From NCBI RefSeq assembly GCF_988243305.1, contig NZ_OZ547138.1: a stretch of 64,000 bases of DNA. One strand, 5' to 3'. Of this stretch, positions 51,001 to 57,000 are shown in pieces. Source of the DNA: a plasmid. The position numbers were made by a program. The first letter of the stretch is position 1; the number at the start of each line of letters is the position of its first letter.

Positions 51001-54000
51001 TGTTGCCGTGAATCGTGTACATCCTGAAACTGGTTATATTAACTGGCTTTCCTGGAGCCAGGAAAAACTCAGCCGTGCATGTCGTGAACTTGAACTTAAG
51101 CACGGATTCGCGCCTGATAATGGCTGCTTTGTGCATGCACCCGGCAACCGTATTGTGCGCAAAACAGCGCTGGTACGTGAGCGCCGTAATGCCTGGCGAC
51201 GCGGGAAAAAGCAGACGTTCAGGGAATATATTGCGCAGATGTCGATTGCCGGGCTGCGTGAAGAGCCCGCACAAGACTGGTTGTCTTTGCATAAACGGCT
51301 GGCCAGTGATGGTCTGTATATCACGATGCAGGAAGGGGAACTGGTGGTGAAGGATGGCTGGGACAGAGCGCGGGAAGGTGTTGCACTCAGTTCGTTCGGA
51401 CCGTCATGGACAGCTGAAAAACTGGGGCGGAAACTGGGGGAATATCAGCCTGTACCGACAGATATTTTCAGTCAGGTGGGGACACCCGGTCGTTATGATC
51501 CGGAAGCCATAAACGTTGATATCCGGCCGGAAAAAGTGGCAGAAACGGAGAGTCTGAAACAGTACGCCTGCCGTCATTTTGCCGAACGCTTACCGGAAAT
51601 GGCGAGAAATGGTGAGCTGGAAAGTTGCCTGGATGTGCACAGAACTCTGGCAAAGGCTGGATTATGGATGGGGATCCAGCACGGGCATCTGGTACTGCAT
51701 GATGGATTTGATAAACAACAGACACCAGTACGTGCAGACAGTGTGTGGCCGTTAATGACGCTGGATTATATGCAGGATCTGGATGGTGGATGGCAGCCTG
51801 TACCGAAGGATATTTTTACTCAGGTTATACCCGGAGAACGATTCCGGGGACGTAATCTTGGTACTCAGGCTGTCAGTGATTACGAATGGTATCGTATTCG
51901 GATGGGGACAGGTCCACAGGGAGCAATAAAGCGCGAACTGTTTTCCGATAAGGAAAGTCTGTGGGGGTACACGACTGTTCAGTGTGAGTCGTTGATTGAA
52001 GATATGATCGCGGGCGGGAATTTCAGCTGGCAGGCGTGCCATGAGATGTTTGCGCGTAAAGGGCTTATGTTGCAGAAACAGCATCATGGTCTTGTGATTG
52101 TGGATGCGTTTAATCATGAGCTCACACCAGTGAAGGCCAGCAGTATCCACCCGGATTTGACGTTATCCAGGGCTGAGCCGCAGGCAGGGCCATTTGAGAT
52201 TGCAGGTGCAGATATATTTGAACGGGTGAAGCCTGAATGTCGCTACAATCCGGAACTTGCTGCCAGCGATGAAGTGGAGCTCGGCTTCCGGCGCGATCCT
52301 GTACTGCGTCGTGAACGCCGTGAAGCCCGTGCAGCTGCGCGGGAAGATTTGCGCGCGCGTTATCTTGCATGGAAGGAGCACTGGCGTAAACCCGACTTAC
52401 GTTACGGAGAACGGTTACGGGAAATTCATGCTGCCTGCCGTCGGCGCAAGGCGTATATCCGTGTGCAGTTCCGGGATCCACAATTGCGTAAGCTGCATTA
52501 CCATATTGCAGAAGTGCAGCGTATGCAGGCGCTGATCAGGCTGAAGGAGAGTGTGAAGGAAGAGCGGTTGTCACTGATTGCGGAGGGTAAGTGGTATCCT
52601 TTGTCCTACCGGCAGTGGGTGGAGCAACAGGCGGTACAGGGAGACAGAGCTGCATTATCACAGTTACGTGGCTGGGATTATCGTGATCGTCGCAAAGACA
52701 AGCGACGAACAACGAATGCCGACCGCTGCGTGATTCTCTGTGAACCGGGAGGAACTCCACTTTATGAAGACACTGGCGTTCTCGAAGCCCGTCTGCAGAA
52801 AGATGGCAGTGTGCGTTTTCGTGATCGGAGGAATGGCGAGTTAGTCTGTGTGGATTATGGGGACCGTGTGGTGTTCTACCATCATCAGGACAGAAATGAA
52901 CTGGTGGATAAGCTGAATCTGATTGCTCCTGTATTGTTTGATCGTGAGCCAAGAATGGGTTTTGAACCGGAAGGCTCATATCAACAGTTTAATGATGTAT
53001 TTGCGGAAATGGTGGCCTGGCATAATGCAGCTGGAATAACCGGAAGTGGACACTTTGTAATCAGCCGCCCGGATGTGGATTTACATCGTCAGCGTAGTGA
53101 ACAGTACTACCACGAATATATCAGGCAACAGAAAAGCATATCCGGGGGGCATGGCGCATCTTATGCTCCAGTTCAGGATAATGAGTGGACGCCACCATCA
53201 CCTGGAATGTAGGGATGAGGAGTGGATATTAAAAATCTTAACTTGTATTAGTTAAGATTTTCTTTGCTCTGACAGAGCTATGGTACTGAGATCTATATGG
53301 ATTGAGGAGCAATATATGGGGGTAAAGAAAATCGTTATGCTGGCTATTTTAGTCAGCTTTGTGGCGGGATGTGCGCCATTACATCCTTCAAATTGCCATA
53401 AAACTACAGCCCTGGGTAGTTGCAGTTCAGGACGTTGGGATGATCAGGATGAATGGGGGGAGCAAGCACGGGGAATCAGGGATGCAATTAATGCTAAACT
53501 TGATGATCCGCAAAAATGGAAAAGGAAAAAATGCAGGTTGCATATGGAATTCTCCCGGGATGGCACGGCGTTAAAAATATCAACCAGTAATGGCGATAAA
53601 GCCTATTGCGAAGCGATAAAGTCAGCAGCCCATAAAGCTAAATTCCCGGCCTTCAACAATCCGGAAGTTTATAGAGATTTTCAAAAATCCGGCTTTGACA
53701 TGCGCGGTTAGCTCCACGACATATCTGTAGGGCTAACAGAAGACTGTCAGGTTGGCTGATTACTACACTGGAACCTGAGGTACTTTGCCTCAGGTTATGT
53801 TGACATACTCAAAAATAGATTCTTACATTATCCCGGTAACGGCGTCCTTCATCGGCCTGCCAGTTACCATCAATGGTATTGGTACCCTCGTTCTTTCTGT
53901 CTGTGATGTTAATAAGGGCAAAATTAATCAGCATGTCTGGCAGGAATGATTCCGCGTCTGGCACAGCCAGGCACCTGATGGCATGAAATGCCGCTAAGCC

Positions 54001-57000
54001 CGCGTAATTGCGGGCTTTTTTTTGTTTGTGTTTGGCACGATCTGGCAACGGGAGGAAGCGCCAAGCACCGTTTGAGCATGGCATTAAAGCTGGTATTATG
54101 GTTTGGCGATGCCATGATTGATGCCGATACCATGCTGCGTTCTTTTGTGTGTTCATGGTATTAATATTCTATAAGTTACTGTTTCGTAAGAAAAAATACG
54201 ATAAATTCGAGATTTTTTCAGCATGGTATCGGAGACGAAGAAGGACAAGGTACATGCTGACCGATACCAAGCTGCGCAATCTCAAGCCCAGGGACAAACT
54301 CTACAAAGTGAATGACCGGGAAGGTCTCTATGTGGCAGTGACTCCAGCCGGCTCCATCTCGTTCCGTTACAACTACTCAATCAACGGTCGGCAGGAGACC
54401 ATCACCTTTGGGCGTTATGGTGTCGGTGGCATCACCCTGGCCGAAGCCCGCGAGCTGTTGGGTGACGCCAAGAAGATGGTTGCGGCGGGCAAGTCGCCGG
54501 CCAAGGAGAAAGCCCGAGACAAGGCGCGGGTGAAAGATGCAGAGACGTTCGGTGCCTGGGCGGAGAAGTGGCTGCGTGGCTACCAGATGGCCGACTCCAC
54601 CCGCGATATGCGCCGCTCGGTTTATGAGCGTGAGCTGAAGCCGAAATTCAGCAATCAGAAGCTGGTGGAGATCACCCACGAAGACTTGCGGGCGCTGGCT
54701 GATGCCATTGTTGAGCGAGGCGCACCGGCCACCGCCGTTCATGTGCGTGAAATCGTGTTGCAGGTATTTCGCTGGGCCATCGAGCGTGGGCAGAAGGTCG
54801 AAGGCACTGTTGCAAATAGTCGGTGGTGATAAACTTATCATCCCCTTTTGCTGATGGAGCTGCACATGAACCCATTCAAAGGCCGGCATTTTCAGCGTGA
54901 CATCATTCTGTGGGCCGTACGCTGGTACTGCAAATACGGCATCAGTTACCGTGAGCTGCAGGAGATGCTGGCTGAACGCGGAGTGAATGTCGATCACTCC
55001 ACGATTTACCGCTGGGTTCAGCGTTATGCGCCTGAAATGGAAAAACGGCTGCGCTGGTACTGGCGTAACCCTTCCGATCTTTGCCCGTGGCACATGGATG
55101 AAACCTACGTGAAGGTCAATGGCCGCTGGGCGTATCTGTACCGGGCCGTCGACAGCCGGGGCCGCACTGTCGATTTTTATCTCTCCTCCCGTCGTAACAG
55201 CAAAGCTGCATACCGGTTTCTGGGTAAAATCCTCAACAACGTGAAGAAGTGGCAGATCCCGCGATTCATCAACACGGATAAAGCGCCCGCCTATGGTCGC
55301 GCGCTTGCTCTGCTCAAACGCGAAGGCCGGTGCCCGTCTGACGTTGAACACCGACAGATTAAGTACCGGAACAACGTGATTGAATGCGATCATGGCAAAC
55401 TGAAACGGATAATCGGCGCCACGCTGGGATTTAAATCCATGAAGACGGCTTACGCCACCATCAAAGGTATTGAGGTGATGCGTGCACTACGCAAAGGCCA
55501 GGCCTCAGCATTTTATTATGGTGATCCCCTGGGCGAAATGCGCCTGGTAAGCAGAGTTTTTGAAATGTAAGGCCTTTGAATAAGACAAAAGGCTGCCTCA
55601 TCGCTAACTTTGCAACAGTGCCGGATTGAATATAACCGACGTGACTGTTACATTTAGGTGGCTAAACCCGTCAAGCCCTCAGGAGTGAATCATGACCGTA
55701 GTCACGACCGCCGATACCTCCCAACTGTACGCACTTGCAGCCCGACATGGGCTCAAGCTCCATGGCCCGCTGACTGTCAATGAGCTTGGGCTCGACTATA
55801 GGATCGTGATCGCCACCGTCGACGATGGACGTCGGTGGGTGCTGCGCATCCCGCGCCGAGCCGAGGTAAGCGCGAAGGTCGAACCAGAGGCGCGGGTGCT
55901 GGCAATGCTCAAGAATCGCCTGCCGTTCGCGGTGCCGGACTGGCGCGTGGCCAACGCCGAGCTCGTTGCCTATCCCATGCTCGAAGACTCGACTGCGATG
56001 GTCATCCAGCCTGGTTCGTCCACGCCCGACTGGGTCGTGCCGCAGGACTCGGAGGTCTTCGCGGAGAGCTTCGCGACCGCGCTCGCCGCCCTGCATGCCG
56101 TCCCCATTTCCGCCGCCGTGGATGCGGGGATGCTCATCCGTACACCGACGCAGGCCCGTCAGAAGGTGGCCGACGACGTTGACCGCGTCCGACGCGAGTT
56201 CGTGGTGAACGACAAGCGCCTCCACCGGTGGCAGCGCTGGCTCGACGACGATTCGTCGTGGCCAGATTTCTCCGTGGTGGTGCATGGCGATCTCTACGTG
56301 GGCCATGTGCTCATCGACAACACGGAGCGCGTCAGCGGGATGATCGACTGGAGCGAGGCCCGCGTTGATGACCCTGCCATCGACATGGCCGCGCACCTTA
56401 TGGTCTTTGGTGAAGAGGGGCTCGCGAAGCTCCTCCTCACGTATGAAGCGGCCGGTGGCCGGGTGTGGCCGCGGCTCGCCCACCACATCGCGGAGCGCCT
56501 TGCGTTCGGGGCGGTCACCTACGCACTCTTCGCCCTCGACTCGGGTAACGAAGAGTACCTCGCTGCGGCGAAGGCGCAGCTCGCCGCAGCGGAATGAGCG
56601 AACGTCGATATAGCCCGCTCGCGACGCTGTTCGCGGCGACCTTTCTCTTCCGGATCGGCAACGCGGTGGCGGCCCTCGCGCTTCCATGGTTCGTCCTGTC
56701 TCATACAAAGAGCGCGGCCTGGGCGGGCGCCACGGCCGCTAGCAGCGTCATCGCGACCATCATCGGCGCGTGGGTTGGTGGTGGCCTCGTCGATCGGTTC
56801 GGGCGCGCGCCCGTCGCATTGATCTCGGGTGTGGTGGGCGGCGTGGCCATGGCGAGCATCCCACTGCTCGATGCCGTTGGCGCCCTCTCGAACACTGGGC
56901 TGATCGCTTGCGTGGTGCTCGGTGCCGCGTTCGACGCACCCGGTATGGCCGCGCAGGACAGTGAGCTGCCCAAACTCGGCCACGTCGCCGGGCTCTCCGT

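Follow-up and report, generated by a model that had tools for sequence, protein, structure and literature searches.

A stump of GIsul2, very probably integrated at a secondary site and later cut by IS26, behind nikB of an I-complex plasmid

What occupies the DNA downstream of the relaxase gene nikB in this plasmid, where a second resistance island begins, and how did it come to lie there? An earlier note on the sequence had read a small lipoprotein gene and a phage-type integrase fragment at this place, and had proposed that an integrative element or genomic island, captured next to the relaxase gene, had left a remnant there that served as the entry point for the island. Every feature it named was found where stated, or no more than a few bases away. 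We analyzed the locus within a window of 64 kb (the whole 64,000-nucleotide stretch of contig NZ_OZ547138.1), and the proposal held in its main part: 53946-54802 is very probably a stump of the left end of GIsul2, an integrative mobilizable element that entered at a secondary site and was later cut by IS26. All features below lie on the + strand unless otherwise stated. The backbone preceding the locus carries nikA (50157-50489), encoding a MobA-type relaxosome accessory protein (NCBIfam MobA NF041264, 107.2 bits, cut-off 80), and nikB (50501-53212), encoding the MOBP relaxase (NCBIfam TraI_MobP_relax, TraI/MobA(P), 402.6 bits, cut-off 250), which is annotated in related plasmids as relaxase WP_000991384.1. 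A terminator-like hairpin with a 12-bp A/T-rich stem followed by UUUUCUUUG lies 3' of nikB (53232-53261); it folds at -11.4 kcal/mol (z = -3.7), with equally stable structures in 0/200 shuffles, and the consensus terminator scan made no call for it.

The small lipoprotein ORF was read directly from the sequence at 53316-53711 (131 aa), with a GAGGAG Shine-Dalgarno sequence 6 nt upstream. As in bacterial lipoproteins, the predicted signal peptide ends in a lipobox ([LVI][ASTVI][GAS]C), here VAG/C (MGVKKIVMLAILVSFVAGC); signal peptide and lipobox (MGVKKIVMLAILVSFVAG/C) were taken straight from the translation. The protein matched Pfam PF06519 TolA over residues 44-125 (E = 5e-14) and the PDB TolA domain III chains 1s62, 3qdp and 2x9a (E about 4e-8), which points to a TolA C-terminal (domain III) fold, and the alignment with E. 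coli TolA domain III shows both cysteines conserved. The likeness is restricted to this C-terminal domain: unlike E. coli TolA, the 131-aa plasmid lipoprotein is without the transmembrane and helical TolA domains, and it is not a full-length TolA equivalog, scoring 53.8 bits with NF007065 (cut-off 213) and 45.2 bits with TIGR02794 (cut-off 59.45). Nothing relevant on a TolA-domain lipoprotein adjoining nikB was found in the open-access literature searched. Downstream of the gene lies a backbone hairpin (53772-53796) with perfect 9-nt arms; when folded it has 11 pairs (-16.6 kcal/mol, z = -3.5).

The lipoprotein gene had previously been counted as part of the captured element, and this has to be given up. 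At >=99% identity the gene is present in 594 plasmid records, among them empty-site plasmids and pO157, and from this distribution it can be assigned to the normal backbone of B/O/K/Z-type I-complex plasmids, outside the island. Could the integrase-like gene then be ordinary backbone as well, with nothing captured at all? Besides the frequency of the lipoprotein gene, a published comparison that named sul2 an integral part of the backbone (PMC6128377) would favor this, but 142 plasmid records join the lipoprotein gene straight to the trbC spacer without any integrase, and the DNA of the integrase stretch recurs with 100% identity in an element that occupies guaA in chromosomes and is also present in Acinetobacter, in Morganella and on IncC-size plasmids. 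The idea of the integrase as backbone is refuted by the empty-site plasmids, and we regard the reading that both genes are standard backbone, named in the earlier note as the outcome that would overturn it, as extremely improbable; its lipoprotein half stands and its integrase half falls. Two readings are corrected in this way: sul2 and the integrase stub do not belong to the backbone, and the lipoprotein gene does.

The same comparison with I-complex plasmids lacking the island gave the empty site itself, which is contiguous in the 142 records on the same backbone. Between the lipoprotein gene and trbC it reads ...GGCAGGA/TCTGGGAATTC..., and the attB is ...GTCTGGCAGGA/TCTGGGAATTC.... The attL reads ...GGCAGGA/ATGATTCCGCG, with the island side beginning ATGA, and the attR ...AGAGTGGGA/TCTGGGAATTC. 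Only the bases GGA, the crossover core of attL (53943-53945), are common to plasmid attB and GIsul2 attP at the junction, and as the shared core is only 3 bp the crossover point is fixed only to within GGA. The sequences of attB, attL and attR agree with a conservative crossover, specific for the site, at GGA, which argues that GIsul2 integrated site-specifically at a secondary site. The attL junction is found in 21 PLSDB records, and 32 records have a backbone/CR2 (attLR-type) junction at the same base. A search for attachment-site direct repeats near 53.7-54.2 kb had been suggested; the attL was found, and no direct repeats flanking an element were detected in 53.7-54.26 kb, the attR lying beyond the window. 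The only significant repeats in that search were a 14-nt inverted repeat and copies of CATGGTAT upstream of the integrase gene int.

GIsul2 itself is already known (Nigro & Hall 2011; Harmer et al. 2017), and what we describe is ordinary resistance-plasmid history with no new biology. Our homology search of the integrase fragment led to its left end, with 860/860 bases from 53943 on matching a chromosomal guaA-linked copy. The fragment, reported earlier as the first about 180 codons of a P4-like integrase, comprises codons 1-183 of the 400 codons of GIsul2 int (54254-54802), directly followed by IS26, and its start is the ATG at 54254, one base before a reading from 54255. It is identical to WP_000954590.1 in 183/183 residues and to GIsul2 int in 549/549 bases, while residues 184-400 are missing. 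Pfam divides the full-length Int into Arm-DNA-bind_3 (2-88), Phage_int_M (99-190) and Phage_integrase (203-375). Of these, the window int retains the Arm DNA-binding domain and the greater part of the central domain; it is without the catalytic domain (203-375), so that it does not have the three domains of a P4-type tyrosine integrase and, ending at residue 183, cannot recombine DNA. The ORF extends 8 codons into IS26 to a stop at 54827-54829, giving a truncated Int of 191 aa.

The whole remnant, made up of the attL arm, a regulatory spacer and the 5' part of int (53946-54802), showed 100% identity to pAB3 of A. baumannii ATCC 17978, IncC-size plasmids, pHUSEC411like of E. coli PMV-1 and E. 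coli chromosomal copies at guaA. This was further supported by GIsul2 records of unrelated context (pAB3, Morganella, Providencia, IncC-size plasmids), which are 100% identical over 53943-54802, and by the left-end arm (53943-54253, contiguous with int), which is identical in pAB3, PMV-1 pHUSEC411like and the chromosomal guaA-linked copy; the match to backbone-only records ends at or near 53949. The left end of GIsul2 thus equals 53943-54802 base for base (attL island side, hairpin, spacer, int codons 1-183), and its published core position is the crossover position in the window plasmid. A P4-like satellite prophage or other tRNA-targeting genomic island as the source of the remnant, suggested by the P4-family architecture (Arm-DNA-bind_3 plus P4-type central domain) and by a weak hit of the NCBIfam integrase domain PRK09692, is refuted by this nucleotide identity across attL arm and int. 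In addition, the 64-kb window holds no tRNA or tmRNA gene and the target resembles a guaA-type core rather than a tRNA, leaving such an origin with practically no chance. An Rfam scan of the whole window returned only the repZ pseudoknot (11030-11180) and nothing in 53.2-54.8 kb.

GIsul2 is a 15.46-kb integrative mobilizable element (Zhang et al. 2022, PMC9376610) that normally integrates at the guaA 3' end with an 8-bp core, published as GAGTGGGA, and is found with the reduced cores GGGA and TGGG at secondary plasmid sites (PMC9376610); its integration is Int-dependent (PMC9376610, PMC5704250). Unlike GIsul2 at the guaA 3' end, where GAGTGGGA is expected on both sides, the window copy sits in a plasmid spacer with GGA alone in common. 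This is a secondary target like those described in IncC plasmids (PMC9376610), and it concerns the location and not the identity of the element.

Within the remnant, the terminator-like hairpin reported near 53995-54022 was confirmed at 53996-54023. It consists of AAGCCCGCG-TAAT-CGCGGGCTT (53996-54017, 9 pairs) followed by T8, folds at -15.6 kcal/mol (z = -2.6 vs. shuffles), and is the sole terminator-like site called by the scan of 53150-54900. The chromosomal order is guaA-ATGA-hairpin-int, all on one strand, and at this native site the hairpin lies ~50 nt past the guaA stop codon, which is restored by the island itself. The intrinsic-terminator-like hairpin is part of GIsul2 and not of the plasmid. 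Further downstream, a perfect 14-nt inverted repeat is formed by CCGATACCATGCTG (54124-54137) and CAGCATGGTATCGG (54219-54232), with a copy of CATGGTAT at 54154-54161. Three of the four copies of CATGGTAT in the window fall within 54124-54232 (no strand assigned), and the reconstructed attP has two more, in the right arm of GIsul2; we infer that these repeats are candidate arm-type Int-binding sites. In the promoter scan promoter-like sites were no commoner than in shuffles, and no int promoter is claimed.

The left boundary of the resistance region is the IS26 that truncates int (54803-55622; 820 bp with perfect 14-bp terminal inverted repeats). It begins at 54803 with GGCACTGTTGCAAA, ends at 55622 with a perfect inverted copy, and matches the IS26 of CP145695, whose transposase (Tnp26) is WP_001067855.1, at 100% identity along the full 820 bp. 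There is no 8-bp target duplication (left AGGTCGAA, right GGATTGAA), so that the pathway may have been insertion with adjacent deletion, cointegrate formation or IS26 x IS26 recombination. IS26 is followed by mphA-mrx-mphR, with mph(A) at 55692-56597. In place of the full GIsul2 gene set, int is thus succeeded by IS26 at 54803 and mphA, and the window holds a remnant of GIsul2, not a functional element; unlike intact GIsul2 it keeps 857 bp, the interior being replaced by the IS26-bounded resistance region.

The proximity of IS26 without target duplication raises the question whether the int fragment was brought in as a passenger of an IS26-bounded translocatable unit, or through recombination with a different resistance plasmid, so that the backbone junction would be an artefact of the IS26 era. 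GIsul2 int stubs are indeed widespread in resistance regions, ~1,950 plasmid records keeping only the first 82 bp. However, no IS is present at the backbone/GIsul2 junction, which is a clean crossover at the known core position. The junction is identical in PMV-1 pHUSEC411like, where it is followed by intact GIsul2 with the full gene set and then, behind a matching attR, by trbC-trbB-trbA; this plasmid contradicts the view that the attL junction needs a nearby IS26. Relatives with the same attL are also cut at differing points by differing agents (Tn7, deletions, attL x attLR). A passenger origin is accordingly very improbable, and integration of GIsul2 at this site remains the preferred explanation. 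IS26 was also considered as the common cause of all truncations in relatives and rejected, as p866 and pEcoUTI1f have Tn7 ends and the ATCC 43886 plasmid a plain deletion. The junction of the ECOR 24 plasmid was likewise rejected as an attR: behind the 16 bases GGAATGATTCCGCGTC the sequence continues directly in the gene of the ISCR2 transposase, which is an internal deletion.

The right end of the island (attR, ISCR2-sul2) would lie past position 64000 in the window plasmid and is taken from CP145695, which is collinear with and 99.976% identical to window positions 31147-64000. There, attL and attR enclose an island of 27,259 bp that contains IS26-mphA...class 1 integron...tetA...strAB-ISCR2-sul2 and ends at the attR adjoining trbC-trbB-trbA; of the right part of GIsul2 only attLR-ISCR2-sul2-attR remains. 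The island of this near-identical plasmid thus lies wholly between GIsul2 attL and attR, in line with the remnant as its entry point. The transfer genes thought to have been replaced behind nikB are displaced, not missing, since trbC-trbB-trbA directly follow the island in relatives. The I-complex plasmids pHUSEC41-1 and PMV-1 pHUSEC411like have the same backbone and attB as the window plasmid, and pHUSEC41-1 types have the CR2-sul2 part attached at this very base through an attLR-type junction; the window plasmid differs from both by the IS26 cut at int codon 183, with an exact int/IS26 junction that only 3 PLSDB records have, and by the large multidrug region.

Taken together, the likely order of events is as follows. 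An intact 15.5-kb GIsul2 (int-alpA-repA-repC-trbJKL-toxin/antitoxin-ars-resolvase-ISCR2-sul2) would have used its P4-type tyrosine integrase to enter the spacer that separates the TolA-domain lipoprotein gene from the trbC 3' end of a B/O/K/Z-type I-complex plasmid, where only GGA matches the element core GAGTGGGA. The hairpin, as the element's own terminator, may end guaA transcription just past the restored stop codon at the chromosomal site, and in the plasmid this predicted terminator would keep transcripts of nikB and the lipoprotein gene from running on into int. IS26-driven events presumably then replaced the interior from int codon 184 on with a multidrug region (IS26-mphA-mrx-mphR-IS6100-chrA-sul1-qacEdelta1-aadA5..., running past the window), leaving attL and a non-functional int without its catalytic domain.

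A similar history is known from ARI-B of IncC plasmids, which arose from GIsul2 (PMC9376610, PMC5704250). ARI-B of IncC (A/C2) followed the same route, with a secondary-site GIsul2 and a reduced core (GGGA there, GGA in the window plasmid), and in both cases resistance modules were gathered inside GIsul2 while end fragments were kept. The window plasmid differs in its family (I-complex, MOBP/MPF_I), in its target (the spacer from the TolA-domain lipoprotein gene to trbC) and in the cargo of its lineage (mphA, a class 1 integron with dfrA17-aadA5, tetA, strAB). The open-access literature searched yielded nothing relevant on GIsul2 specifically in I-complex plasmids. One old secondary-site integration probably provided a neutral landing pad that later gained genes for resistance to macrolides, trimethoprim, aminoglycosides, tetracycline and sulfonamides, which parallels the origin of ARI-B and explains why the second resistance island of this lineage lies behind nikB and ahead of the trb transfer genes. 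For annotation and for tracking plasmid evolution, the attL junction and the rarer int/IS26 junction can serve as lineage markers.

As the island of the near-identical plasmid still has attL with arm-type repeats, attLR and attR, it might move as a unit. It is conceivable, if unlikely, that the ~27-kb island is excised or moved, whole or as a CR2-sul2 sub-unit, by a GIsul2 integrase acting in trans; mphA, the class 1 integron, tetA, strAB and sul2 would then be transferred from the I-complex plasmid to guaA in the chromosome. For GIsul2 borne on IncC plasmids, Harmer et al. (2017) reportedly found no such products of excision. Movement of this kind could be modulated by the truncated 191-aa Int, with its arm-binding and central domains. 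Chromosomal GIsul2 at guaA, a source of integrase in trans, is found in some E. coli and Shigella.

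Downstream of nikB, which encodes a MOBP relaxase (50501-53212) and follows nikA for a MobA-type accessory protein (50157-50489), the window carries an A/T-rich hairpin (53232-53261), an ORF for a 131-aa lipoprotein (53316-53711; GAGGAG ribosome-binding site, signal peptide ending in the lipobox VAG/C), a GC-rich hairpin followed by eight Ts (53996-54023; 9 pairs, −15.6 kcal/mol) and a truncated integrase ORF, int (ATG at 54254, to 54802, 183 codons). The latter is cut by an 820-bp IS26 (54803-55622, starting GGCACTGTTGCAAA) with perfect terminal repeats and no 8-bp target duplication, beyond which lie mph(A), mrx and the remainder of the resistance region. 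The earlier note had located its features of this interval almost to the base, and had proposed an integrative element or genomic-island remnant beside the relaxase gene.

Megablast of 53213-54802 divided the interval cleanly. I-complex plasmids matched from the left side, and records bearing GIsul2, a 15.5-kb integrative mobilizable element, in unrelated contexts (pAB3 of A. baumannii ATCC 17978, Morganella and Providencia plasmids, IncC-size plasmids) were 100% identical over 53943-54802. The pHUSEC411like plasmid of E. coli PMV-1 matched the entire query at 100% and then continues with the canonical GIsul2 genes int (1203 bp, WP_000954590.1), alpA, repA, repC, trbJ-K-L, a ptaRNA1-type toxin, arsB-C-H-R, a resolvase, ISCR2 (ISVsa3) and sul2. 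Identical GIsul2 sequence is found in E. coli chromosomes immediately 3' of guaA, with int on the guaA strand; there guaA ends four bases inside the island, which contributes ...A-TGA and restores the stop codon. The stretch 53943-54802 matches this guaA-linked copy at 860/860 bases. The fragment is an island remnant as proposed, namely its left end, and the captured element is GIsul2 itself rather than a relative. The full-length Int has the Pfam domains Arm-DNA-bind_3 (2-88), Phage_int_M (99-190) and catalytic Phage_integrase (203-375). The window retains residues 1-183 and wholly lacks the catalytic domain, and therefore its Int cannot recombine DNA. The truncated ORF continues 8 codons into IS26 (54254-54829; …QKVE-GTVANSRW*), so the int promoter could still drive synthesis of a 191-aa Int that keeps the arm-binding domain and the greater part of the central domain. 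Nothing of int beyond its first 82 bp (54254-54335) is left in about 1,950 plasmid records, which are mainly from Klebsiella, and only 19 records have at least 80% of the 549-bp int fragment; a very short GIsul2 stub is therefore a widespread passenger of resistance regions.

The GC-rich hairpin, the sole terminator-like call of a terminator scan within 53150-54900, belongs to GIsul2 and not to the plasmid, and in chromosomes it lies ~50 nt past the guaA stop codon. This position immediately after the restored stop codon suggests that it terminates guaA transcription in the native site; in the plasmid it would shield int from read-through from nikB and the lipoprotein gene. The region preceding int contains a perfect 14-nt inverted repeat (CCGATACCATGCTG, 54124-54137; CAGCATGGTATCGG, 54219-54232) and a third CATGGTAT copy at 54154. 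This octamer occurs four times in the 64 kb, and three of these copies fall within the 106-bp stretch 54124-54229; the reconstructed attP has two more in its right arm. These repeats are good candidates for putative arm-type sites of the Int N-terminal domain; the word "arm" is absent from the integrase paper (PMC9376610).

We probed plasmid records with the backbone left of the junction fused to the backbone right of the PMV-1 island. The two sides were contiguous in 142 plasmid records, so that I-complex plasmids lacking the island have an empty site and no integrase here. With junctions marked by a slash, attB of the empty site reads ...AATCAGCATGTCTGGCAGGA/TCTGGGAATTCATACC..., attL of the window ...GTCTGGCAGGA/ATGATTCCGCGTC... 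and attR of the PMV-1 plasmid and CP145695, a near-identical relative, ...CAATAGAGTGGGA/TCTGGGAATTC.... As read from the sequences, the three sites bear the mark of a conservative, site-specific crossover between GIsul2 attP (...GAGTGGGA-ATGATTCC...) and the plasmid site, with GGA (53943-53945) the sole bases common to both. The core at the guaA 3' end is GAGTGGGA, secondary sites have a reduced core, which is GGGA in IncC plasmids and TGGG in off-target events obtained experimentally, and the need for Int and the att sites has been demonstrated experimentally (PMC9376610). The plasmid site is thus analogous to the GIsul2 location in IncC plasmids, both being secondary sites. PLSDB has 21 records with this attL junction; in 32 further records, including pHUSEC41-1, the CR2-sul2 part starts at the same base (GGCAGGA/GTGACGGGCACTGGC), as expected of either deletion between attL and attLR or CR2-sul2 integration. 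Four records have an internal deletion of the ECOR 24 type, which brings the total with GIsul2-derived DNA to roughly 57 of the about 200 plasmids having this interval. RefSeq annotates a 115-aa hypothetical protein across the backbone/GIsul2 junction (WP_157700089.1, 53809-54156, minus strand), where empty-site plasmids have a different 76-aa ORF; a chimeric ORF call, not a gene, is the likeliest explanation. Among the PMV-1 plasmid, CP145695, ATCC 43886, pEcoUTI1f and p866, the identical attL occurs in three I-complex replicon groups by MOB-suite (IncI1/B/O, IncI-gamma/K1, IncK2/Z), and therefore replicon exchange or backbone recombination followed integration, or the typing is ambiguous.

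The stretch 31147-64000 is collinear with plasmid p1-S1-KEN-03-A (CP145695) at 99.976% identity. After the int stump CP145695 has IS26-mphA-mrx-mphR-IS6100-chrA-sul1-qacEdelta1-aadA5-dfrA17-intI1, then TnAs1-type tnpR/tnpA, tetA(A) and IS26-strA-strB, and last GIsul2 attLR, ISCR2, sul2 and attR, followed by trbC-trbB-trbA; from attL to attR the island measures 27,259 bp. This order implies that the multidrug region was assembled inside GIsul2, as is also thought for the resistance island ARI-B of IncC plasmids (PMC5704250), and agrees with the suggestion that the remnant was the entry point of the second resistance island. The earlier remark that nikB is not followed by transfer genes needs a correction: in relatives trbC-trbB-trbA are displaced past the island, on the opposite strand in the PMV-1 plasmid, and not lost. 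The exact int/IS26 junction is rare (only 3 PLSDB records). In relatives with this attL, the truncations lie at other positions and have other causes: a Tn7 end follows window-equivalent 54064 in p866 (2352/2353 of its record) and 54144 or 54147 in pEcoUTI1f and B4103-1 (2432/2433 in pEcoUTI1f, 2435/2436 in record L012), and ATCC 43886 has a deletion at 54528. These differences support, as the probable history, a single early integration and then independent erosion. The Tn7 end (TGTGGGCGGACAAAATAGTTGGGAACTGGG...) thus occurs at two positions, 80 bp apart, in the attL-int spacer of related plasmids, which suggests that independent Tn7 insertions hit the same small GIsul2 region.

A GIsul2 integrase supplied in trans could still move this multidrug island as a whole or only its CR2-sul2 sub-unit; for the full island this is unlikely, because the attL core is degenerate. 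Trans-mobilization is the only reading here with some novelty, and there is no new mechanism. Dozens of public plasmid sequences have the GIsul2-derived structure at this site. A search of open-access papers found no explicit description of GIsul2 at this I-complex site, and an earlier one may exist. The p866 paper counts sul2 as integral to the IncB/O/K/Z backbone (PMC6128377); p866 itself has the GIsul2 attL junction, and its relatives' sul2 sits inside an attR-bounded GIsul2 segment.

The lipoprotein gene, listed in the earlier note alongside the integrase fragment, lies outside the captured element and is conserved backbone of B/O/K/Z-type I-complex plasmids. By tblastn it was found at at least 99% identity in 594 plasmid records, including plasmids without an island at this position and the non-conjugative pO157, in which it comes after a truncated nikB (3965-4396 of the pO157 Sakai record, L010); homologues of intermediate identity are almost absent. 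Residues 44-125 match the Pfam TolA C-terminal domain (E = 5e-14), and solved structures of TolA domain III are also matched (E about 4e-8); as a true TolA, the protein scores well under the cut-offs. One purely speculative role, suggested by the PDB match 2x9a, is that of a TolA-domain decoy in the periplasm that counters TolA-dependent colicins or the I-pilus phage If1.

Elsewhere in the window, a PK-repZ pseudoknot (11030-11180; Rfam RF01087, 173.9 bits), a replication-control element of I-complex plasmids, confirms the plasmid family. The first resistance island (21419-29766) comprises IS26 (21419-22238), an ISKra4-family transposase fragment (22239-22754) and, on the minus strand, qnrS (23534-24190), a Tn3-family tnpA fragment (25643-28192) and blaCTX-M (28831-29766). 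In the leading region, between ssb/psiB/ardA-type genes, a sequence of roughly 499 bp occurs twice in direct orientation (38906-39402 and 45251-45746) with 88% identity.
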